This document shows, one piece after another, positions 4,346 through 38,718 of a stretch of DNA of 64,000 nucleotides. Positions within the stretch are counted from its first letter, which is position 1. Each line of letters begins with the position of its first letter. Origin of the DNA: Escherichia coli (GTDB lineage: Bacteria; Pseudomonadota; Gammaproteobacteria; Enterobacterales; Enterobacteriaceae); the NCBI RefSeq assembly GCF_965641715.1, contig NZ_OZ282453.1; one strand, 5' to 3'. The notes beneath the pieces are model-generated. The model was given only the letters and a program-made list of their open reading frames with translations, was not told the DNA's origin and made no database searches. The position numbers and the translations under genes are program-made.

Positions 4346-5125
4346 ATGACGATGAATTCATTCGAGCGAAGGAATAAGATCATCCAATTAGTGAATGAAC
4401 AGGGAACCGTGCTTGTTCAGGATCTGGCGGGAGTATTTGCTGCCTCGGAAGCGACAATCCGTGCCGATTTGCGCTTTCTCGAACAAAAAGGCGTGGTTAC
4501 GCGCTTTCATGGCGGTGCGGCGAAAATAATGTCCGGTAATAGTGAAACCGAGACCCAGGAAGTCGGGTTTAAAGAGCGATTTCAGCTCGCCAGCGCGCCA
4601 AAAAACAGAATAGCGCAGGCGGCAGTCAAAATGATCCACGAAGGGATGACCGTTATTCTCGACAGCGGAAGTACGACAATGCTTATCGCCGAAGGATTAA
4701 TGACCGCCAAAAATATCACGGTGATTACCAACAGTCTCCCGGCAGCGTTTGCCCTTTCCGAAAATAAAGACATTACTCTGGTCGTCTGCGGTGGCACGGT
4801 CCGCCATAAAACGCGCTCGATGCATGGTTCCATTGCCGAGCGTTCATTGCAGGATATTAATGCCGATTTAATGTTTGTCGGTGCTGATGGTATTGATGCG
4901 GTTAATGGTATTACGACCTTTAATGAAGGTTATTCGATTAGCGGGGCGATGGTCACCGCCGCTAATAAAGTGATTGCCGTTCTCGATTCATCGAAATTTA
5001 ACCGTCGCGGTTTTAATCAGGTACTGCCAATCGAAAAAATCGACATTATTATTACCGACGATGCTGTGTCAGAGGTGGATAAACTGGCATTGCAGAAGAC
5101 ACGGGTGAAATTAATTACGGTGTAG
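4346..5125 (+). CDS. gatR: DeoR-family repressor of the gat operon, intact
   Basis: 259-aa uninterrupted ORF with N-terminal HTH and C-terminal sugar-binding region. Confidence 0.85.
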   Translation: MTMNSFERRNKIIQLVNEQGTVLVQDLAGVFAASEATIRADLRFLEQKGVVTRFHGGAAKIMSGNSETETQEVGFKERFQLASAPKNRIAQAAVKMIHEGMTVILDSGSTTMLIAEGLMTAKNITVITNSLPAAFALSENKDITLVVCGGTVRHKTRSMHGSIAERSLQDINADLMFVGADGIDAVNGITTFNEGYSISGAMVTAANKVIAVLDSSKFNRRGFNQVLPIEKIDIIITDDAVSEVDKLALQKTRVKLITV

Positions 5126-5206
5126 TATTGTTCTGTATGCCGGATAAGGTATTTACACCGCATCCGGCATTACGGATTCTCCCTGGTTCAAGAGAGAATA
5201 GTTTGA

Positions 5207-6106
5207 TTAACGCAATAATGGACAATCTGGTGGTAATCGACAACGCAACGCCGCCGGAAGTATTTCAATATGGAAGTTTTGCCCACTCAACGGTTCGCCA
5301 TCAAGATTAAAAGTGATTTCGTGTGGGGCTTGTATATCAAACCACGACGAAGCGCCTTCGATAATATTCGGGTTATCTTCGTCAGATTTTAAGGTTGATA
5401 CGAGAGCCGGAAGAATTTCATCGCCGGTAAAAATGCGCAGTTGCAGCAAGCCATCGTTAATTAACGCGTTCGGACACAATTGCTGACCGCCACCGGCCTG
5501 ACGCCCGTTACCAATACCAATGACCAGGGCGTCACCTTGCCAGTGAAAGTTTTCACCGCGGATTTCACAACGGTCCGGTTGCAGAGTATCCATGCGCATT
5601 AAGCCATGAATGATGTAAGAGACGCCACCCAGCGCGGCTTTTAATTTTTCCGGCGTTTCTGTGGTAATACGTGTCCCAAACCCGCCTGTCGCCATATTAA
5701 TAAAACAGGTTTGTTTGTTGACCTGCGCCATATCTATCGCAATGGCGTTACCGGCAATTGCCAGTTTCAGCGCCTTATCCAGTGCCTCAGGAATCCCTAC
5801 ACTGGTGGCAAAATCATTGGCGGTTCCTAATGGCAAAATTCCCAGCGCGGGTATGTTATCCCCCTCACACTGAATCAACGCCGTAGAAACTTCATTAATG
5901 GTGCCATCGCCACCACCGGCAATCACCGTTGCGACGCCCAACTTCCGGGCCTCCTCTACATATCGTGCGGCATCGCCTTTCTCCCAGGTGACCCGCACAT
6001 GGATCGTCATTCCTTCCTCACGCAACAGCATAATTGCTTCGCGCAATGGTAAATTGTCAGTACTTTTGCCATTAAGAATCAGTAAGCTGGCGGGAAATTC
6101 TGCCAT
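5207..6106 (-). CDS. yegS: Lipid kinase YegS (diacylglycerol kinase-like fold)
   Basis: 299-aa ORF with GGDGT motif; position next to gatR as in K-12. Confidence 0.85.
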
Positions 6107-6519
6107 GATCGTATGTGCCTTTATGATTGGTCTGTAGATAGTGTAGAGCAGAAAAGAAAAGGTGGAGTCAGAACAGGATGAAAGTCGGAGGATAAAAAGT
6201 CAGTTCAAGTATGGGGGATTCAGTGGTTACCACCAGGAGCTTGCAATGGGAACAGCGAATATTAACGGTAGCCACCGATAAATTTCAAAAAAGAGCATAT
6301 GCCTAATATTCAACCAAACAGTGGCATCTTAAATATACTATTCCAAATATATTAAAGCCCCCATGGAGTTACCCGGAAGGGCCTCCATGTCCGTAATTCC
6401 TACTTATGTAGGAAATGTTGTACAGAACATTTATTATAATCCTATTCAAATATAATAATCAGCCATTATTATATTTAAACACTAGAGAGTGTCGTTGGTA
6501 TTTAATGGGGAAAGGTGAG

Positions 6520-6837
6520 ATGAAAAAGATAGCTGCTATATCATTAATTAGTATTTTTATTATGTCTGGTTGTGCTGTGCATAATGATGAGACAAGTATC
6601 GGTAAATTTGGTCTTGCATATAAAAGTAATATTCAGCGTAAACTCGATAACCAATACTACACCGAAGCCGAAGCTTCTTTAGCCAGGGGCAGAATATCTG
6701 GTGCAGAAAATATAGTAAAAAATGATGCAGCCCATTTCTGTGTTACTCAGGGCAAAAAAATGCAGATAGTTGACCTGAAGACAGAAGGTGCAGGATTACA
6801 TGGCGTCGCTCGTCTGACATTCAAATGTGGAGAGTGA
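6520..6837 (+). CDS. yegR: Small lipoprotein YegR (105 aa)
   Basis: Start chosen at MKKIAAISLISIFIMSGC lipobox signal peptide preceded by aaaggtgag RBS; the longer ORF from 6415 is rejected. Confidence 0.7.
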   Translation: MKKIAAISLISIFIMSGCAVHNDETSIGKFGLAYKSNIQRKLDNQYYTEAEASLARGRISGAENIVKNDAAHFCVTQGKKMQIVDLKTEGAGLHGVARLTFKCGE

Positions 6838-6995
6838 GAATATTTTTTGGTAAGCGTCAAACATGCGCGTTCTGGTTGTGCTTAGCCGGAACCTGTGCGA
6901 GCACGATGCCAATAAGTGAAAGGCATCGTGCTATGAAGGGAGATTCTATCGATGTGGTCAATGGAAGACGGTGACCAGGGATAGGGCTTATGCAT

Positions 6996-7017
6996 AAAAA
7001 ATAAGCCCGTGTAAGGG
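6996..7017. repeat. attL core: 22-bp direct repeat aaaaaataagcccgtgtaaggg shared with attR
   Basis: Exact repeat found at 6996..7017 and 38957..38978; matches the P2 att core as I recall it. Confidence 0.7.
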
Positions 7018-7101
7018 CGTTTATATACCCTTACAACAGGGGCTTTCAGCGGTGCAATGCGGGTTTGCGCGGCACGCAAGACCACTGAAAGCCATAATAA
7101 A

Positions 7102-9904: not shown

Positions 9905-10180
9905 ATGAGTATCCGTATCGAGATAAATCATCAGTATGTAGTTACAAGCGATCGCTACCAGTTCATTTTGCAGGAAAAGAAAGTGGCGACTGCTGGAAAA
10001 AATAAAGGTAGCGAATGGCTTGATACTGTCGGGTATTACCCGACGATTCAAAAACTGATTTCTGGTCTGGTACTACATGACCTTTTAAATGGCGGTGCTG
10101 ATAGTTTTGCGGCGTTGGGTGAGCAGGTCGAGCAGTTGGGACTGCAATGTCAGACCGCGTTTTGTGCTGATGGCCGTTGA
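9905..10180 (+). CDS. Hypothetical early protein (P2 orf81/82-position)
   Basis: ORF only; position, RBS aaggagac upstream. Confidence 0.4.
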   Translation: MSIRIEINHQYVVTSDRYQFILQEKKVATAGKNKGSEWLDTVGYYPTIQKLISGLVLHDLLNGGADSFAALGEQVEQLGLQCQTAFCADGR

Positions 10181-12461
10181 GACTCGGGGGCGTATTGCCC
10201 CCTCGCTAGCCCTGCCAATATCTAAGCGCACCGGCGATACTTTCGTTGGTGCTTATCCCTGGAATGCTCCCCGCGCTGCCATTGGCCGTGACAGACCCCT
10301 TACACGTGCCGAATTCCGTCAGGTGCAAGGTGTTTTATACCGGATTGACCGCCTGCCTTTCTTTCTTAAGACGTTGTTTACTTCCCGTTATAACTTCATT
10401 CGTCGCACAAAGAGCCCGCCCGGGGCGCTCTATTTCCTGAAAAACACCTTTGAGCGGAAGCTGTTGCCGCGTCTTGAGCGCGTTAACGAGCTGTGCGGGA
10501 TGAATGAATCTGCGTCGATTGGTTTCTTGTCTGAGCGTGACGAATATGCGCGCTTGCCTGATATGAATGACAAAGAGCTGAAAAAATTTGCGGCCAGAAT
10601 TGCCGCGCAGCTCTGGCGTAAATACGAGGAACTCAGCGACGAATGGGCTGAGGCATTCGGCGGTAAAGAGACCCTTTTCACCGATGAGGCGCAGGTGCAC
10701 ATATATGGTCAGGTGGCTGGTGTTGCACGCGCGTTCAACTTAACCCCGCTCTACTGGAAAAAATACCGTAAGGGTCAGATGACGATCCGCATGGCGTTTT
10801 CCGCTATTTCCCGTCTGATAAAAGATGATTGGTGGGTTAACCAGCTCAAGGCGCAGCGTATGCGCTGGCGCGAGGCGCTGCTTATCGCTGCCGGTGAAGT
10901 CAACAAAGACCGTTCACCTTACGCCAGCAAAATGGCGATCCGCGAGGTTCACTCGCGCCGGCTGGCTAATCTCGAATACCTGAAATCCTGTGAGCTGGAA
11001 AACAAAGTTACCGGCGAACGTATCGACCTCATCAGTAAAGTCATGGGGAGTATTTCAAACCCTGAAATACGCCGTATGGAGCTGATGAACACCATTGCCG
11101 GAATTGAACGCTATGCGGCCAGCGTTGGTGATGTGGGAATGTTTATCACGCTGACCACGCCGTCGAAGTATCACCCGACCCGACAGGTCGGCAAAGGTGA
11201 CAGCAAAACGGTGCAGCTCAATCACGGCTGGAACGAAACCGCATTCACCCCTAAAAACGGCCAGCGCTATCTGTGCCGAATCTGGAGCCTGATGCGTACC
11301 GCTTTCAAAGATAACGATTTGGAAGTGTATGGGATGCGCGTTGTCGAGCCGCACCACGACGGCACGCCACACTGGCATATGATGCTTTTTTGCAAACTCA
11401 GTCAGCGTAAAGCTATCAACGAAATTATGCGTCGTTATGCCCTCAAAGAGGACGGACACGAAAAGGGCGCGGCAAAACAGCGCTTTGAGTCGCGTCACCT
11501 TAATCAGGGGGGCGCGGCGGGTTATATCGCCAAATACATTGCCAAAAATATCGACGGCTACGCGCTTGACGGTCAGCTCGATCACGATACCGGCAAATCT
11601 CTGAAAGATACGGCCGCAGCCGTAACCGCATGGGCGTCTACATGGCGTATCCCTCAGTTTAAACCGATTGGCCTCCCGACAATGGGCGCTTACCGCGAAC
11701 TGCGTAAGCTGCCGCGCGGGGTGAGTATCGCCAGCGAGTTTGACGACCGTGTCGAGGCCGTCCGGGCTGCTGCAGATGAGGGGGAATTTGACCTGTACAT
11801 CAGCGCGCAGGGTGGGGCAAACATGCCGCGTGATGCTCAGGCGGTCAGGGTCGCCCGTAAGGTGACGGATGAGGTAAACGAATACGAGGAGGATATCGAG
11901 AAAGTGGTCGGTATTTATGCCCCTCATCTTGGGGTGAGCCGCGTACATGTAACCCGTACAGCGGAATGGCGCATAGTTCCAAAGGTTTTGGCCGTTGAGC
12001 CTTTGACCTTAAAAAGCGGCTCTGCCGCGCCTCGGAGTCCTGTCAATAACTGTGGAAAGCTTGCCGACGGTGGCGATCCAGTTATGACACCTACACCGTC
12101 TGAGCAAGCCGCAGCGGTGTTAAATCTGATTGAGGCCGGGGTTATCGGCTGGAATGAGCCAGACGTCATGAAGGTTCTTAACGGCGCGTTAAAAGCTGGC
12201 GCACCTCGCAATAATCGCCAGCAAAGAAGCAATGCGCCACTCAAAACGAGCGAGCAAGCTCCATCAGCCAGGATGACAACACCAGAAAGGGATCGCGTGG
12301 CGAAAATTCGTTTCGATTTGGCTCAGGAGGGCATTACCCCAGAACGGTGGGCGCTCGAAGCGCTGGCGCGTGGGGCAACGGTGATTTATGGCGATAAAAA
12401 AATCAAATACGCGGCTGCTGATGAGTGGCCGGGATTCTCAATTCAAGAGGAGCAGAATTAA
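10170..12461 (+). CDS. P2 gpA rolling-circle replication initiation endonuclease (~763 aa)
   Basis: Extensive identity to remembered P2 A; start placed at MAVETRG rather than the upstream extension. Confidence 0.9.
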   Translation: MAVETRGRIAPSLALPISKRTGDTFVGAYPWNAPRAAIGRDRPLTRAEFRQVQGVLYRIDRLPFFLKTLFTSRYNFIRRTKSPPGALYFLKNTFERKLLPRLERVNELCGMNESASIGFLSERDEYARLPDMNDKELKKFAARIAAQLWRKYEELSDEWAEAFGGKETLFTDEAQVHIYGQVAGVARAFNLTPLYWKKYRKGQMTIRMAFSAISRLIKDDWWVNQLKAQRMRWREALLIAAGEVNKDRSPYASKMAIREVHSRRLANLEYLKSCELENKVTGERIDLISKVMGSISNPEIRRMELMNTIAGIERYAASVGDVGMFITLTTPSKYHPTRQVGKGDSKTVQLNHGWNETAFTPKNGQRYLCRIWSLMRTAFKDNDLEVYGMRVVEPHHDGTPHWHMMLFCKLSQRKAINEIMRRYALKEDGHEKGAAKQRFESRHLNQGGAAGYIAKYIAKNIDGYALDGQLDHDTGKSLKDTAAAVTAWASTWRIPQFKPIGLPTMGAYRELRKLPRGVSIASEFDDRVEAVRAAADEGEFDLYISAQGGANMPRDAQAVRVARKVTDEVNEYEEDIEKVVGIYAPHLGVSRVHVTRTAEWRIVPKVLAVEPLTLKSGSAAPRSPVNNCGKLADGGDPVMTPTPSEQAAAVLNLIEAGVIGWNEPDVMKVLNGALKAGAPRNNRQQRSNAPLKTSEQAPSARMTTPERDRVAKIRFDLAQEGITPERWALEALARGATVIYGDKKIKYAAADEWPGFSIQEEQN

Positions 12462-12925
12462 TGAGCAAAATCCATGAGTTAAAAATTGCACCTGAGTATT
12501 TTAACTCTGTGATATCTCAGGAAAAACGTGCTGAATTTCGTCTCAATGACCGCGATTATTCTAGCGGTGATATTCTCGGGTTGCATGAATGGGAACCGGT
12601 AAACAGATATACCGGGAAACGTGTATCAGTGAGGGTGACAAACGTTACGGATTTATCTGAATGGGCGGAAAATTATGTGATGCTGAGTTTTCAGTTAATG
12701 ATGCCAGATGTCCAGTGCGGTATGTCCCTAATGAACTGGAAAGAGTTAAGCGAGAAGGGGCTTGTTTTCAGAGTTAATCACGAAATTCTACACCCGTTAG
12801 GGCTGGCTATTAGATATGAAACACTTAACAGCGTTTCTGGTAGGGCTTACATCGCTGATGATGGTGTCTGGCAATATTCCGACAAGTTGGTCGCAGATGC
12901 TAAAAAAAATGGGTGGTTAAAATGA
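12461..12925 (+). CDS. DUF3850-like (ASCH/PUA-like) protein, 154 aa
   Basis: N-terminal HELKIAPEYF...EFRLNDRDY..GDIL motif; ATG overlaps gpA stop (TAATG). Confidence 0.5.
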   Translation: MSKIHELKIAPEYFNSVISQEKRAEFRLNDRDYSSGDILGLHEWEPVNRYTGKRVSVRVTNVTDLSEWAENYVMLSFQLMMPDVQCGMSLMNWKELSEKGLVFRVNHEILHPLGLAIRYETLNSVSGRAYIADDGVWQYSDKLVADAKKNGWLK

Positions 12926-13161
12926 GTCATATGCGAATGATGCCAGTGCCGCCGATACATTCAACGCAAAACATTAAGCTGATGGCCGTCGTACATCGCC
13001 TGCAACAAATTATGATTAACGAGAATCTGACCCCTGACGAACTGGTCGGGTGTGCCGGTGTCGTCCGGGATAATCACCGCAAATACAGCGATATCAGCAA
13101 TCCGAAAATTGAGGCGTTTCGGCCACCAAATATGGCAAAGCCACCACCGCGTCGACCATAG
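12913..13161 (+). CDS. Hypothetical small protein (82 aa)
   Basis: ORF only, proline-rich basic C-terminus. Confidence 0.3.
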   Translation: MVKMSHMRMMPVPPIHSTQNIKLMAVVHRLQQIMINENLTPDELVGCAGVVRDNHRKYSDISNPKIEAFRPPNMAKPPPRRP

Positions 13162-13443: not shown

Positions 13444-13462
13444 GGCGAGGCGGGGTAAGCGT
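13444..13462. other. cos-like 19-mer ggcgaggcggggtaagcgt (first 12 nt match the P2 cohesive-end sequence as recalled)
   Basis: Partial match to remembered P2 cos GGCGAGGCGGGGAAAGCAC; location between A region and Q is as expected. Confidence 0.3.
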
Positions 13463-13533: not shown

Positions 13534-15090
13534 ATGATTAAGGGTATAGGTCTTCAAAACTTCAGGAGCTTTGTCAACAAAACGTTTATTGATTTAAAAC
13601 CAATTACAGTATTTGTTGGTAAGAACAGCAGTGGTAAAAGTTCCCTATTGCGCACATTTCCTTTACTTCGTCAATCTGTAGAAGAAAATACTACTGGCCC
13701 AATACTATGGTATGGGAGATATGTGGATTTTGGCGATTTTACAGATGTACTTTCCCGAAACTCTGAAAAAAAAGAAATTACGTTTAGTTTTTCACTCTCA
13801 ATTCCGCCAGAGGTTTCACAAAGATATACATATTATCGTTCTACTGATTTAGCAAAGCAACCAACAGATATTGAAGCAGAGTTAACTGTTTACTCTAAAG
13901 ATAAAAAAACAAAAACGAAAACGATTAAGCTTATATTGGCTGATTTAACAATATTTATTTCAATGGATGAGAGTAGTAATGTTAAATTACTCATTGAATC
14001 AGATGATAAAACAATAGAGCGTGATGGGATAATAGCTAAAAATCTTGGGCAGTTCATACCAAATCTAATTTTGAAGGGTAAGGAAGACAGTCCTCCTCCA
14101 AGCACATCATTCTATTTGAGACATTCTAGGCATGACAGGGCGTTAGAATTGTCATTTATTGATTCAGCGGCGAAATATATAAAGAAATATTTCCATACTA
14201 AATCTGATATAAATCAAGTGACAGAGGCATTCAAAAGAATTGGCTTTATACCCAAAGCGTACGCTAGTAAATTAGTTGCTTTTCTATTTAAGGAACAAAA
14301 AGTTTTTAGTAGAAACTTTGAATTTCAACATGATGAAATAATGAATGAGTTATATCCATTTATAATTGGATGGAATATTAATAATCTTATAGATATAATA
14401 AATACATCCTTGTCAGATTCATTCAGAAATGTAAAGTACATAGCTCCACTGCGTGCTACATCAGAAAGATTTTATCGTTTTCAAGATTTACAGGTTAATG
14501 AGATAGATCATACTGGTTCCAATCTTGCAATGCTTTTGAATTCATTAAGACCGGCTGATAAATCAAAATTTGAAGATTGGACAAAGTTAAATTTTGATTT
14601 CATTATCAAGGTTGAACAAAGTGGCTCTCACTTTGCAATTTTAATAAACACCGGTGAAAATAGTGAGAACTATAATGTTAGTGATATGGGGTTTGGTTAT
14701 TCTCAGGTTTTGCCGATAGTTACAGCCATTTGGCTTGAGACAGAACGTCGTGCTACCACGGTTAGAAAACCTATAACATTTATCATTGAGCAGCCAGAAT
14801 TGCATTTACATCCGTCATATCAGCATAATTTAGCAAGTATTTTTGCAAAAGTAGTAACTAAAGCAAAAGAAAATAATGTAGATTTGAAGATAATTTTTGA
14901 GACACATAGCCAGACCATGATTGAAGCACTTGGTGAATATATTGAGGAAAATGAAAGTCTTTCACAGGATGATATTTCAATACTGGTATTTGAAAAAGAT
15001 GATAAGCAGCAGACTATAGTTAAGAAATCTTATTTTGACGAGAATGGTTTCCTAAAAAATTGGCCGGTTGGCTTTTTCTCGGGTAAGTAG
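13534..15090 (+). CDS. OLD/AAA_21-like ABC ATPase (518 aa), first gene of cargo operon
   Basis: Start MIKGIGLQNFRSF with GGAG RBS; Walker A GKNSSGKSS (13618..13644); Walker B-like FIIEQPELHLHP (14779..14814); FETHS H-loop; AT-rich. Confidence 0.8.
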   Translation: MIKGIGLQNFRSFVNKTFIDLKPITVFVGKNSSGKSSLLRTFPLLRQSVEENTTGPILWYGRYVDFGDFTDVLSRNSEKKEITFSFSLSIPPEVSQRYTYYRSTDLAKQPTDIEAELTVYSKDKKTKTKTIKLILADLTIFISMDESSNVKLLIESDDKTIERDGIIAKNLGQFIPNLILKGKEDSPPPSTSFYLRHSRHDRALELSFIDSAAKYIKKYFHTKSDINQVTEAFKRIGFIPKAYASKLVAFLFKEQKVFSRNFEFQHDEIMNELYPFIIGWNINNLIDIINTSLSDSFRNVKYIAPLRATSERFYRFQDLQVNEIDHTGSNLAMLLNSLRPADKSKFEDWTKLNFDFIIKVEQSGSHFAILINTGENSENYNVSDMGFGYSQVLPIVTAIWLETERRATTVRKPITFIIEQPELHLHPSYQHNLASIFAKVVTKAKENNVDLKIIFETHSQTMIEALGEYIEENESLSQDDISILVFEKDDKQQTIVKKSYFDENGFLKNWPVGFFSGK

Positions 15091-15092
15091 TT

Positions 15093-16205
15093 ATGTTGAT
15101 TAATATCGAAAATGCGACACCTGAGAAGGTGCTAAATAACTCATTTGCCATAGCGGTTGAAAATATACTTCGGGCATTCGCTGAACAAAAACACTTGGTT
15201 ATAGGGGCAAGGGTTTTTTTTAAAACTATTATCAATGATCAAAGCGGGCTTTATAGCCTTTCATCAAAAAGTTACGCGCAAGAGGCTTTGTCGGGTCTAA
15301 CAGAGTACTATGCTATCTTGGATCAGGTCTCATTTTATGTATCTGTCGACTTTAATATTAGTGATAAATCATTTAAATGGGTTCAGATCGGTGAATCTTT
15401 TAAATTTGTTTGTGGTCCATTGTATTTTAATGACTCGGCACAATTGCAAAAAACGAAAATAGTATGTGAAAATCCTTTGGATTCTGATTTTTTTAAGGTT
15501 ATAGCGGCTCATTATGCCGAAGGTATTAACTTATCTCGCTGCGAAATGGGTTTTATCGCTCTAAATGGCGGTGGGGGCAGTACTAAGGATATATTCGAGC
15601 GTGCAATTCAAAATAATGAGATAGTTTTTTGTATTGTGGATAATGACAAAAAACATCCTGGAGCCCCATTCGGAGGTACTTGCTCACATTTTTTGGGCTC
15701 ACAAATTACTCGCTCAGGTTTCGTGGAGATTTTAGATGTACATGAAATAGAATCTCTAGTTCCTTTATCGACAATTGAAGATGTATTAAGAAGTCAAAGT
15801 CAATTGCAACAAAAAGAAAAATCTCTCATTTTCTTTAAGCATCTTTGCTCCGTAGATGAATCAGTAAAATTTTATATTGACCATAAAAAAGGTTTTGATT
15901 TTAAAACAGCCCTTGAACTCGATCGAAAACATGGTGCATATTGGCGTCCGATATTAAAGAAGCTTGATATAAAATATGATTGTGAGTATATCGAATCAAA
16001 ACGTTGTAGCTGCAACGCTGCTTGTGTAAGTTATGATGGTTTTGGAGAGAATTTGCTCAGCAATACATTGAAATATATACAAAAGGGAAGTTTAAAAAAA
16101 TATAATCCTCACCTAACACCAGTGCTTTCTGATAAATGGTATAAGTTAGGTAAGAATTTCTTTAGTTGGAGTTGTGGTCCATATAAAAAAGCAAGGGTTG
16201 GTTAA
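15093..16205 (+). CDS. Partner protein (370 aa) with Toprim-like signature, possible nuclease effector
   Basis: ATG 2 nt after ATPase stop; YAEG (15519..15524), GGGG, IVDNDKKHP (DND at 15639..15647); C-terminal Cys cluster; AT-rich. Confidence 0.65.
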   Translation: MLINIENATPEKVLNNSFAIAVENILRAFAEQKHLVIGARVFFKTIINDQSGLYSLSSKSYAQEALSGLTEYYAILDQVSFYVSVDFNISDKSFKWVQIGESFKFVCGPLYFNDSAQLQKTKIVCENPLDSDFFKVIAAHYAEGINLSRCEMGFIALNGGGGSTKDIFERAIQNNEIVFCIVDNDKKHPGAPFGGTCSHFLGSQITRSGFVEILDVHEIESLVPLSTIEDVLRSQSQLQQKEKSLIFFKHLCSVDESVKFYIDHKKGFDFKTALELDRKHGAYWRPILKKLDIKYDCEYIESKRCSCNAACVSYDGFGENLLSNTLKYIQKGSLKKYNPHLTPVLSDKWYKLGKNFFSWSCGPYKKARVG

Positions 16206-16210
16206 ATTAT

Positions 16211-16235
16211 CACAGCCCCGATAAAGTGGGCTGTG
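16211..16235. terminator. Hairpin (cacagccc/gggctgtg) downstream of cargo operon, possible terminator
   Basis: 8-bp inverted repeat followed by T-rich stretch. Confidence 0.35.
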
Positions 16236-16300
16236 ATGTTATTATCTGTGGTTCTTGAGTTACAGGGCTGAATATAATGTTGAGATGTTTATTTTGAAAA

Positions 16301-17308
16301 TCAAAGTGAATATTTTTTAAATCTTATAACTTCCATTTCTAACCAGTTGTTTAGTTCTTTGAACCGTTCCTGTAAAGGAGTTAACTCATTTCGGACAAAC
16401 ACTTGTGCAGCTTTTACAACATCACCAAAACCGCCAACATTGTCAGGCATAATTCCCATCATTTGTGGTGGTACCCTATGAGCACTCAACAAATCTTCTG
16501 CACTAACCTTTTTGATATTGAAAAAATCATCTTTCGTGGCGACTTCACTCAACGGCACAATCTTGATGCCATCCGGTTTCCCGTTGGGCGCGTAGAAAAA
16601 CAGGTTTTTGAAATTCCCGAGTCCTTTTGAGTCGCGCATCGCGTTACGGAGAGATTCAACATCGGTGCTGCTCTGTGCCGCGTCGGTGACATACATGATG
16701 TACCCCGCATGTGCGCCATTCTGATAATACTTGCGGCGAAACAGGGTAGCGGATTCATTCAGCCAGGCGGAATTAAGCGCGCTCAGGTATTCCGGCATCC
16801 CGTACAGCTCCTGATTGATATCGGGCTCAAGCAGGTGACACACAGAACCGGGGGCGAACGGGTGCGGCTGGGTGTAGCTCGACACGTACCAGTAAACGCC
16901 ATCTTCGACACCCCGGCGGGTGTATTTGGCCGGTGAGGTTTCCAGTTTTAAGAGCTGGCCGGTGACGCTCATGCGCTTCTCAAGATAGCCGTTGGCAAAA
17001 ACCAGATAATCAAGCACAAGGCGACTGAAATCCTGACGTGACAGCAACGGGTGCGGGATATAGGTGCTCGTCAGAATGTTACGTTTCACGTAAATCGGCG
17101 AGCTGTGATGGACGGCGGCGCGCAGGCTTTTTGCCAGTCCCGAGAAATTGACCGGCGGCTCGTACCATTTCCCGTTATTGATACACTCTACGTAGTCGAG
17201 GATGTCGCGGCGATCCAGAACGGGAGAAGGCTCACCAAAGGTGAACGCCTCCATTTTTTGCGGTGCGCTGGCGGTCATTGTGGCGGGTTTCTTCTGTCGT
17301 TTTTTCAT
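16301..17308 (-). CDS. Portal protein (P2 gpQ-like)
   Basis: 335-aa ORF, position opposite terminase P, similarity to P2 Q from memory. Confidence 0.85.
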   Translation of the reverse strand: MKKRQKKPATMTASAPQKMEAFTFGEPSPVLDRRDILDYVECINNGKWYEPPVNFSGLAKSLRAAVHHSSPIYVKRNILTSTYIPHPLLSRQDFSRLVLDYLVFANGYLEKRMSVTGQLLKLETSPAKYTRRGVEDGVYWYVSSYTQPHPFAPGSVCHLLEPDINQELYGMPEYLSALNSAWLNESATLFRRKYYQNGAHAGYIMYVTDAAQSSTDVESLRNAMRDSKGLGNFKNLFFYAPNGKPDGIKIVPLSEVATKDDFFNIKKVSAEDLLSAHRVPPQMMGIMPDNVGGFGDVVKAAQVFVRNELTPLQERFKELNNWLEMEVIRFKKYSL

Positions 17309-24946: not shown

Positions 24947-25038
24947 GAGTCCTAAGAAAATAGAGAAAGCAGATATTATACAAAAAAGATAATATCTGCT
25001 GCTGGGTCGATATTTGAATGTATTTATTTAATCTATTG

Positions 25039-25791
25039 CTAACGTTCGAATATTATTATCACCCCAAGAGTGAGATGTATATGATCTTCTATTTGTTCAT
25101 ATTCTTCTTGGGTGTAAGAAAGTTTAGCTAATTCTTCTGTTGCTGAAAAGACATCAATGGATACTTGGACGCCTGATGGGATTTCATTTTTTATTTCATT
25201 AATGTATTTGTTGTATTTTCTTGTGATTAGTATTATTGCGCGATCTCTGTCGACGGTGGTTGAGCAATATCGATTGGATTTGCTGTTGTTATTGTGGAAT
25301 GATTCGAATGCGCAATTGAGGGCAAGTCTTAGATTTGATGATCCTGTATTTCCAGTGTGATTGAAGTATTCTATGTTTCTTCTTAAGTCTTCAAATAGTT
25401 TTGCCTTATTTGGATTGTCCCCTTTAACTTCAATAGCACATTTTGGATAATCAAACCCATTATTATTGCCTAGTATGGCAATGTCTATCCTACCTTTTCT
25501 GGTTGTGTTTGCTTTGATTCTTAGTATTTGCCTTGAAAATATTTTCCCCGGCGTTAGTCTTTTTGAAAATGGCACCGTTGAAGTTATAAAATCCCCTGTA
25601 TCATATTCAAAAATTATTTTCTCATCATCTATGTGAAAATTTTTACTATCAAGTAGGGCTTTGCCTATTGATACAGTAGCGACGTATTCGGTATTGATTT
25701 TACCACCAGAACTGAAATTCATTAAACGTGTGATTTTAGCTGCATTGGACATGCCATCCTTTACTGCTGTGATTATTTCGTAATTGTCCAT
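25039..25791 (-). CDS. AT-rich cargo protein (250 aa) with PD-(D/E)xK-like nuclease motif
   Basis: Opposite strand to flanking tail genes; motif GRIDIAIL..(17 aa)..AIEVKGDN (D103, E121, K123; 25423..25485); strongly AT-rich. Confidence 0.6.
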   Translation of the reverse strand: MDNYEIITAVKDGMSNAAKITRLMNFSSGGKINTEYVATVSIGKALLDSKNFHIDDEKIIFEYDTGDFITSTVPFSKRLTPGKIFSRQILRIKANTTRKGRIDIAILGNNNGFDYPKCAIEVKGDNPNKAKLFEDLRRNIEYFNHTGNTGSSNLRLALNCAFESFHNNNSKSNRYCSTTVDRDRAIILITRKYNKYINEIKNEIPSGVQVSIDVFSATEELAKLSYTQEEYEQIEDHIHLTLGVIIIFER

Positions 25792-26109
25792 ATTATTTAC
25801 TCAGGTAACTGTTTTATTTTGATTGTTCTTACTGGATGTTTTATAAGTATAATAATTTGGATTATGCTAATCAACTAGTCTTCTTTCGGCTTTTACTAAT
25901 GACTCATTTATGAATGATAATGTTATGATTCCAGCAACCGAAGTGGGTATTTTTTTGCACCCAAGTGATCGTTTTGTGGAACTAATATGAGTCTATAAGT
26001 ATCCCTATTTCACTAGTAGGTTGAGACGTCACACTTGCTGGCTGTTGTTTCATGCCCCACAAAACTCAGCTCAATTGTCGCTGGCCTCACTAGGCGGCAT
26101 CCTTTCCCC

Positions 26110-37866: not shown

Positions 37867-38718
37867 TTGAACAATATCCCCATATCTACTCAATGGACTT
37901 TAGACGCTACGGGTGAAGTTGGACGCTCATCAGTAAATTCTGTTTATATGATTATATGTCCTGCGACAGGCTCGAAAGGATCTGGTTTTTTAATAGATAA
38001 TGGGTTAATAGTAACGAACGAGCATGTTATCACTGGATGCTCTACAAATCAGATTTTCGCAATTTCAGCTTATGGACAGAAGATTCCAATTTCTCAAAAA
38101 TGGATAGATTCTGATCGCGATTTAGCTGTGCTGAGACCTGCCATTACCCAGACTGGTGGGCTAAGTATTGTTAAGGATAATGATCTTAAAGTTGGTGAAT
38201 CAGTAACAACTTGGGGATACCCATTAGGATACAACGGTCCTGCACCGTTACTATCCGTTGGTTATCTAGCAGGATTTAACTCATACCAAACCGCCAAGGG
38301 ACAAAAAAAACATCTAGTGGTAAATGGGGCATTTAACTCAGGAAATTCTGGTGGAGCTCTTTTAAAAGCTTCAGATAATAAAGTAATAGGTATTGTAGTG
38401 AGTAAGCATGCTCCTATCAGTCAATACCATCAATCAGCTATTGAAGCTTTGTCTGAAAATATGAGTGGCGTCACCTATACCGCTACTAATGACGCTGGAG
38501 AAACTAAAAGTTTTGTAGAATCTCAAATTGTAGCAGAATTATTGATTCATATGAGAAGTCTAACTCAAGTTATGATTGGAGAAGCAATTGCAGCAGAGGA
38601 ATTACTTTCGATGCTTAGCGAAATTGACTTGAGTCCACCACAATCTATGTCAAGAAATGCCTTATGTCATTGCGGGAGTGGAAAACGCTTCAAAGAATGT
38701 CATGGAAAGATATCCTAG
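37867..38718 (+). CDS. AT-rich cargo: trypsin-like (S1/chymotrypsin fold) serine protease with C-terminal SEC-C zinc-binding motif
   Basis: TTG start with strong aaaggag RBS 7 nt upstream; catalytic-triad-like TNEHV / DLAVL / GNSGGAL; C-terminal CHCGSGKRFKECHG (38662..38703). Confidence 0.65.
   Translation: MNNIPISTQWTLDATGEVGRSSVNSVYMIICPATGSKGSGFLIDNGLIVTNEHVITGCSTNQIFAISAYGQKIPISQKWIDSDRDLAVLRPAITQTGGLSIVKDNDLKVGESVTTWGYPLGYNGPAPLLSVGYLAGFNSYQTAKGQKKHLVVNGAFNSGNSGGALLKASDNKVIGIVVSKHAPISQYHQSAIEALSENMSGVTYTATNDAGETKSFVESQIVAELLIHMRSLTQVMIGEAIAAEELLSMLSEIDLSPPQSMSRNALCHCGSGKRFKECHGKIS

Follow-up and report, generated by a model that had tools for sequence, protein, structure and literature searches.

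ABC ATPases combined with Toprim nucleases (Old, Gabija, PARIS, retron effectors) are among the commonest designs in bacterial immunity. In PARIS, the effector AriB is held by a hexamer of the ATPase AriA, is released when phage proteins are sensed, and cleaves tRNA; PARIS, HEC-03 and WonAB are related pairs of an ABC ATPase and a nuclease for which anti-phage defence requires both genes. HEC-03 (ATPase and PIN) has been validated with both genes needed, and WonAB (an OLD-ABC ATPase and a PD-(D/E)xK nuclease) arrests translation, its WonB predicted to bind dimerised C-terminal extensions of WonA. P2 Old, a fused version of this design, is an abortive tRNase according to a 2026 preprint. Menshen comprises a DUF262 protein (NsnA), an ATPase with a DUF3696 tail (NsnB) and an inPIN-effector (NsnC); NsnB carries an EN Walker B and a GxG signature, and the N-terminal domain of NsnC is predicted to sit in a clamp of two NsnB DUF3696 tails (PMC12065111). 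Here we analyse two adjacent genes, encoding an ATPase and a 370-aa partner, in a P2-like prophage within a 64,000-nt stretch of an Escherichia coli genome (NZ_OZ282453.1; "the window" denotes this whole stretch), and propose, with a probability of roughly 65%, that they form a PARIS/OLD-like two-gene anti-phage abortive-infection module carried as prophage cargo.

The pair is laid out as follows, with all features on the plus strand:

13534..15090, plus strand: ABC (OLD-ABC / AAA_15) ATPase, 518 aa, with a DUF3696 C-terminal tail; RefSeq start ATG 13534
13618..13641, plus strand: Walker A, GKNSSGKS (G29-S36; K35 at 13636..13638), intact
14788..14814, plus strand: Walker B region, IIEQPELHLHP (E419-P427), with E419-Q420 in place of the canonical D-E dyad
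14962..15078, plus strand: DUF3696 tail (Pfam, residues 501-539 of a 542-aa open reading frame), candidate docking surface for the partner
15093..16205, plus strand: partner gene, 370 aa, starting 2 nt after the ATPase stop
15093..15452, plus strand: N-terminal three-layer alpha/beta domain of the partner, residues 1-120, without conserved catalytic residues
15453..15764, plus strand: Toprim core, residues 121-224
15468..15470, 15480..15482 and 15567..15575, plus strand: Toprim key residues E126, D130 and G159-G161
15639..15647 and 15744..15752, plus strand: Toprim key residues D183-N-D185 and E218-I-E220
15765..15980, plus strand: helical domain after the Toprim core, helices 225-295, with D263-x-K265-x-G267 (15879..15893)
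15981..16175, plus strand: Cys4 cluster, C297 (15981), C305 (16005), C311 (16023) and C361 (16173)

The partner is very probably a metal-dependent Toprim nuclease of the OLD/PARIS type, as predicted from both its modelled fold and its family conservation. From N to C terminus, it consists of the alpha/beta domain, an OLD-type Toprim core, the helical domain and the Cys4 cluster. In the AlphaFold2 (AF2) model (pLDDT, a predicted local distance difference test score, 89.4; predicted template modelling score 0.88), a strand at residues 122-125 runs into E126 and is followed by a helix (128-144), a strand (155-158) and the GGG motif, then by a helix (163-173), a strand (178-183) with the DND motif, a strand (209-214) and E218-x-E220. 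This is the Toprim order of beta1-alpha-beta2-alpha-beta3-alpha-beta4, with a parallel four-stranded sheet between helices. Indeed, the five best PDB fold matches of the model are all OLD-type Toprim nucleases, headed by the C-terminal region of BpOLD. An initial annotation of this stretch, made from its letters, had suggested a Toprim-like core here and named an AlphaFold model as a check; the AF2 model supports that suggestion.

Conservation was assessed across an alignment of 145 diverse partner homologues, which share 18-48% identity with the query at a mean column identity of 24%. Four residues are invariant in this alignment (E126, G161, D185 and E220), and at least 90% conservation is seen at D130, G159, G160, C180, D183, P189, G194, T196 and P224, as well as, further downstream, at D263 (93%), K265 (97%), G267 (98%), W284 and the Cys columns. 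These residues fall where a Toprim core would need them: the glutamate at the end of strand beta1 is E126 (in IVCENPLD; 145/145), the glycines after beta2 are G159 (142/145), G160 (131/145) and G161 (145/145), and the DxD after beta3 consists of D183 (144/145, the other being E) and D185 (145/145). Judged by composition alone, the EG and DxD motifs occur at chance level (one observed against 1.4 expected, and two against 1.1, respectively) and GGGG is the sole unusual motif (0.006 expected), so that the significance of the motifs derives from family conservation rather than from composition.

The same alignment shifts the catalytic assignment. The initial annotation had proposed a trio of an acidic-Gly motif, a glycine run and a DxD within the segment now numbered residues 139-189, and its positions are correct (E143 at 15519..15521, D183-N-D185 at 15639..15647, the GGGG run, and CSCNAAC at residues 305-311). 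The glycine run and the DxD are indeed family-conserved across the 145 homologues, but the E143-G144 dipeptide is not: positions 143 and 144 are mostly K/S/F and K/S/W, respectively, helix 128-144 has E143 at its end, and the invariant glutamate is E126 instead. An E143 mutant would thus probably stay active and wrongly seem to refute the Toprim idea.

The remaining residues can be compared with those of BpOLD, in which metal A is bound by E400, D455 and D457, metal B by E404, T506 and E508, and the helical domain contributes K562, which is directed towards the scissile phosphate (PMC6755086). Counted from the Toprim glutamate, the partner residues lie at +4, +57/+59, +92/+94 and +139, against +4, +55/+57, +106/+108 and +162 in BpOLD (PMC6755086). 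Thus D130, E218/E220 (located at the start of the post-Toprim helix) and K265 are conserved in the right order, with spacing that is approximate relative to BpOLD. K265 is a candidate equivalent of K562, as suggested by its order along the sequence, and we infer that the catalytic-type residues cluster in space. Blocks of P2 Old can also be lined up by eye with the partner motifs (LLVEGKTE, AVDGKGS, ILADCD and GDIEAV).

The C-terminal cysteines form a second conserved element. The initial annotation had pointed to CSCNAAC as a possible metal cluster; C305 and C311 are conserved, but C307 is Cys in only 21/145 homologues, and the actual set is C297/C305/C311/C361. All four columns hold Cys in 108 of the 145, and in many of the others the last Cys sits one position earlier (WC vs WxC). 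Furthermore, in one subclade of proteins of ~340 aa (e.g., P0106, P0113, P0116, P0117, P0152 and P0173), the loop spanning 297-311 is deleted and the fourth Cys is also gone; because the four are lost together, they appear to make up a single structural unit, for which a Cys4 Zn site is the simplest reading, and the loop-less members would be natural Zn-free variants. C297/C305/C311/C361 are therefore a probable structural metal (Zn) site, as predicted from this pattern. The pLDDT of the model drops to 64-68 in residues 290-310, i.e., in the Cys region.

The upstream gene encodes the presumed sensor and regulator. Pfam places AAA_15 (1.8e-26), AAA_21 and a C-terminal DUF3696 (1.2e-6) on the ATPase, and PADLOC ranks NsnB (4.9e-55) above PDC-M55A (7.5e-46), HEC-03B (1.8e-37) and AriA (7.2e-31); NsnB is likewise best, PDC-M55A next and both above AriA in all eight ATPases compared (the window's and seven homologues from other loci). 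Within Walker A, G29, N31, S32, G34, K35 and S36 are invariant in seven diverse homologues, as are E419-P427, including EQPE, and the signature MGFGxSQ. Slow hydrolysis is suggested by the Gln in the catalytic-base position, and the ATPase may be an ATP-binding switch more than a hydrolase. As a separate observation, Q420 in the place of the catalytic glutamate resembles the classic E-to-Q mutant of ABC ATPases, which is deficient in hydrolysis. By analogy with the NsnB clamp, the DUF3696 tail would dock the partner here, and the partner's N-terminal domain is possibly the adaptor, although this is a guess.

That the two genes belong together is borne out by their distribution, in keeping with the earlier suggestion that the effector works with the ATPase encoded upstream. 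Directly 5' of the partner there is an AAA_15 ATPase gene wherever a locus extends far enough upstream (L002-L012 and L015-L021), with 2-3 nt between ATPase stop and partner start in most; the pairing is strict in the loci checked, and is obligate. It recurs in Zobellella, Desulfuromonadales, Vibrio sinensis, Thiothrix, Geitlerinema and a lambdoid prophage, as well as in seven IMG/VR contigs, five of which are P2-like with the order gpA ... pair ... Q, P. In the Pf-like filamentous Pseudomonas phage 62-2 (L007; OR621022.1; 12.6 kb), the pair sits beside the repressor at 4399..7035 and takes up about one fifth of the genome. A conserved third gene, such as an NsnA-like sensor, was considered and ruled out: the neighbours differ in every locus compared.

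The family is large. A word-indexed search returned 31 partner clusters, mostly from Enterobacterales, and a peptide-pattern search of genome contigs with narrow patterns found 5 loci, whereas a hidden Markov model scan of 1.84 billion representatives (50% identity) retrieved 1,865 proteins at E<=1e-3, 1,413 of them at E<=1e-10. The best 150 of these 1,865 representatives are mostly ~370 aa (189-396), none long enough for an ATPase fusion. Foldseek against AFDB50 gave full-length partner matches (TM 0.75-0.99) from Proteobacteria, Cyanobacteria, Deinococcota, Chloroflexota and Bacillota, all named "Uncharacterized protein". Among 5,426 complete E. coli genomes, 57 (~1%) carry the 2.9-kb pair, always on the chromosome, and these copies are annotated "DUF3696 domain-containing protein" and "hypothetical protein". 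We found no study of this ATPase/partner pair in the literature.

The genomic setting of the pair is that of phage cargo. The window holds a P2-like E. coli prophage with integrase, cox and gpA, followed by portal Q, terminase and capsid genes, and the pair lies in the following interval:

10089..12461: replication endonuclease gene gpA
13444..13462, plus strand: cos-like cohesive-end site GGCGAGGCGGGGTAAGCGT, matching P2 cosR GGCGAGGCGGGGAAAGCAC, with conserved flanks
16301..17308, minus strand: portal gene Q

The cos-like site, ~70 nt 5' of the ATPase start, is the left boundary of the cargo island, and the pair, placed between cos and Q, occupies the left end of the packaged genome. The mechanically called ATPase reading frame (542 aa) begins at TTG 13462 and would overlap cos. 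Seven related P2-like loci (L001, L002 and L015-L019) have the cos motif just 5' of the ATPase gene. GC content is 32.8% in the ATPase gene and 35.0% in the partner gene, against 54% in gpA and 50% in Q: the pair is a mobile island of 33-35% GC within a prophage of 50-54% GC, and hotspot cargo. Indeed, the gpA-cos-Q region is a documented hotspot for anti-phage cargo in P2-like phages (PMC9122126), and P2 itself carries tin and old in the same gpA-Q region, on the opposite side of cos.

Set against the described systems, the pair shares parts with several and coincides with none. The partner's best fold matches are OLD proteins (P2 Old in class 1, BpOLD and GajA in class 2, retron Ec67 and Eco8 in class 3), with which it shares the Toprim Glu, the Gly and the DxD, and candidate counterparts of the acidic residue at +4, the downstream acidic pair and the Lys come in the same order; the window ATPase is, like theirs, of the OLD-ABC (AAA_15) group, and in P2 the adjacent slot of this hotspot is taken by Old. 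However, OLD combines ATPase and Toprim in one polypeptide where the window has two genes, the Pfam model OLD-like_TOPRIM (PF20469) matches none of the 145 partner members, the putative metal-B pair reads ExE where OLD has TxE, and the partner adds the Cys4 cluster and the N-terminal domain. Menshen resembles the pair on the ATPase side, where the NsnB match is accompanied by a parallel set of features (EQ Walker B, MGFGxSQ signature, DUF3696 tail), and perhaps in layout, as some NsnC are Toprim-fold nucleases behind an N-terminal adaptor. It differs in that no NsnA (ParB-DUF262) lies between gpA and Q, nor near the pair in three other loci (L008, L010 and L011), and in that the partner matches no NsnC model, neither DUF4276 nor RloB, and its N-terminal domain has no PIN match. 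HEC-03 and WonAB have effector folds other than Toprim.

The PADLOC candidate PDC-M55 is matched in part by both proteins. The window ATPase matches PDC-M55A at 7.5e-46 along positions 161-400 of the 421 in the profile only, and the partner matches PDC-M55B at 2e-4 over positions 100-255 of 315, i.e., over the Toprim core only. The PDC-M55B match is weak but repeated, being found in 7/11 partner-family proteins (best E 1.4e-7; none in the others). PDC-M55 is presumably among the 145 candidates of its authors, and the partner family is probably a sister to it rather than PDC-M55 itself. As judged from these domain comparisons, the pair would work like these systems but is a family separate from PARIS, Menshen and OLD, predicted to join an NsnB-type ATPase to an OLD-type Toprim partner with an N-terminal domain and a Cys4 cluster.

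A mechanism can be proposed along the following lines. The ATPase, of the OLD-ABC/NsnB lineage, would oligomerise and keep the Toprim nuclease inactive, with the likely contact being that of the DUF3696 tails with the partner's N-terminal alpha/beta domain. In the nuclease, E126 and D183/D185 would hold metal A and D130 and E218/E220 metal B, K265 would lie near the scissile phosphate, and the Cys4 knuckle, probably with Zn, would stabilise the C-terminal part. On infection by a competing phage, a cue derived from that phage would change the nucleotide-dependent state of the ATPase and free or activate the nuclease, which would then cut nucleic acid via its two-metal site, so that the infection aborts. 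The favoured target would be tRNA or another RNA, by analogy with AriB and P2 Old, with DNA as the main alternative. What computation shows is the modelled fold, the catalytic-type residues, the gene pairing and the mobile low-GC setting; we infer from the analogous systems above the complex and how it docks, as well as its trigger and substrate and the abortion of infection.

Several results weigh against this reading. Sequence libraries do not recognise the partner: Pfam gave no match for the window's protein or for 19 or 145 family members, NCBIfam and PHROGs gave none for the partner, and phmmer and hmmsearch against PDB sequences (including OLD, GajA and AriB) returned chance-level matches only. 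A profile search with the 145-member alignment found family members only, all hypothetical, with no weak tail into named Toprim families. PADLOC was weak on the partner (the PDC-M55B match; AriB at 0.003 for one family member, and no AriB match for the window's partner). Comparison of the family alignment by hhalign was not significant with P2 Old alone, nor with a four-sequence OLD mini-profile (probability <1%), although the glutamate and the Gly motif were lined up; this profile consisted of P2 Old, one homologue, and TsOLD and GajA fragments, and the null result does not count against homology because the template was too thin. The partner's N-terminal domain gave no specific fold match. 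Some copies are decayed: both genes are fragmented in Pectobacterium (L002) and Morganella (L004), and in Thiothrix unzii (L008) an insertion sequence (HTH and DDE_3 genes) interrupts the ATPase. In addition, defence was absent in the single test of HEC-01, which likewise pairs an ATPase with a Toprim protein, and an ATPase with E419-Q420 may bind and not hydrolyse ATP, in which case regulation could differ from that of PARIS.

Among the alternatives, the one that fares best keeps the same design and makes the partner a DNA nuclease or nickase acting on phage or host DNA, as with class 1 and 2 OLD and GajA, and not a tRNase; we regard this as unlikely while taking it seriously. The top fold match, the BpOLD C-terminal region, is a DNA exo/endonuclease, GajA is a site-specific DNA nickase, and the partner's VDND resembles the TDND of GajA. 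Zn-binding modules also sit beside Toprim in the DNA enzymes RecR, DnaG and topoisomerase I, which counts on the same side. However, tRNA is what AriB and P2 Old cut, and these are the two nearest functional analogues studied in vivo; WonAB, too, arrests translation without DNA degradation. The sequence, as far as it can be read, does not discriminate between an RNA and a DNA substrate.

A true but very divergent PARIS, with a hexameric AriA scaffold, an anti-restriction trigger (such as Ocr) and cleavage of tRNA-Lys, would fit the encoding of an AAA_15/AAA_21 ATPase next to its effector, which the pair does share with PARIS. It is nevertheless improbable: the PARIS effector domain DUF4435 (PF14491) is found in 0/145 partner members, NsnB and PDC-M55A outscore AriA in 8/8 ATPases, and the window ATPase resembles NsnB in its DUF3696 tail and EQ Walker B. 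The partner furthermore has an extra 120-aa N-terminal alpha/beta domain and the Cys4 cluster, and the AriB paper makes no mention of zinc or cysteine.

We consider a function outside defence, whether in prophage DNA processing, recombination or repair (Rad50/SbcC-like) or as an addiction module, to be a similarly slim prospect. The depositors of phage 62-2 annotated its pair as "DNA double-strand break repair ATPase" and "putative OLD family nuclease", the N-terminus of the window ATPase weakly matches RecF, SMC and Rad50 models, and one report places an archaeal OLD-family ATPase in the cell cycle and not in defence (PMC12796447). However, the RecF/SMC matches span the Walker A region only, the low-GC island is exchangeable among phages as unrelated as P2-like, lambdoid and filamentous ones and with chromosomal sites that adjoin toxin-antitoxin genes and transposases, and the pair sits where P2-like phages hold their defence cargo; its presence in so few complete E. 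coli genomes also argues that it is not a core phage function. Finally, a catalytically dead Toprim domain serving only as a nucleic-acid- or protein-binding module is very improbable: inactive Toprim-like and PIN-like domains do exist in such systems (e.g., the inPIN of NsnC), but here all of the two-metal residues are invariant or nearly so over 145 sequences that are ~24% identical, the signature of an active enzyme.

Other features of the window lie around the pair or farther off. Between the convergent partner gene and Q, we read one more element from the sequence:

16210..16236, strand not assigned: hairpin with a 9-bp stem, TCACAGCCC-N9-GGGCTGTGA

This hairpin is terminator-like in appearance; a consensus terminator scan did not report it. 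A promoter scan from cos to the ATPase start gave no convincing sigma-70 promoter, with site counts equal to the shuffled expectation. Between gpA and cos, a DUF3850 (ASCH-like) reading frame starting at the gpA end and an 82-aa reading frame (12425..13161, plus strand) lie outside the ATPase/Toprim island, as judged by their GC content of ~48% and their position on the other side of cos. At the Thiothrix unzii locus, a further transposase and BrnT/BrnA toxin-antitoxin genes adjoin the pair.

Among the tail and morphogenesis genes lies another islet of low GC (33.5%, 25001..26000). Its gene at 25039..25791 on the minus strand encodes a protein of 250 aa that is homologous to Tin, the exclusion protein of P2 (PADLOC Tin 5.6e-93), and this prophage therefore has tin at another locus than P2; the reference genome NZ_AP021944 has a different gene, for a 328-aa hypothetical protein, at this site. 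At the far end of the prophage, after an ogr-like regulator, 37867..38718 (plus strand) encodes a 283-aa trypsin-like serine protease of the HtrA/MarP type with a C-terminal SEC-C/SWIM-like metal-binding motif, which PADLOC matches to the protease portion of RT-Protease_XI (7e-21) and to PDC-M35A, and which may be further defence cargo.

The family is large and unannotated, and its design, being already known, would not surprise a specialist. Pfam, NCBIfam and PHROGs are blind to the partner and PADLOC nearly so, and defence-annotation pipelines therefore miss it. For mutagenesis, the corrected set of residues is E126, D130, D183, D185, E218, E220, K265 and C297/C305/C311/C361. The pair brings together an ATPase of the Menshen-type lineage and an OLD-type effector, with no Menshen sensor, and is a simple system of two proteins in which to ask how ATPases with DUF3696 tails sense infection. 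We raise, tentatively and with the odds against it, the further idea of an unnamed, widespread defence family of at least 1,865 clusters (50% identity) that would unite parts of two known systems in a novel manner: a Menshen-type NsnB ATPase, lacking NsnA and perhaps acting as an ATP-binding switch, would directly control a Zn-bearing OLD-type Toprim nuclease via an N-terminal adaptor; if true, this would imply a cue other than the one PARIS senses, and the RNA or DNA that is cut might differ as well.

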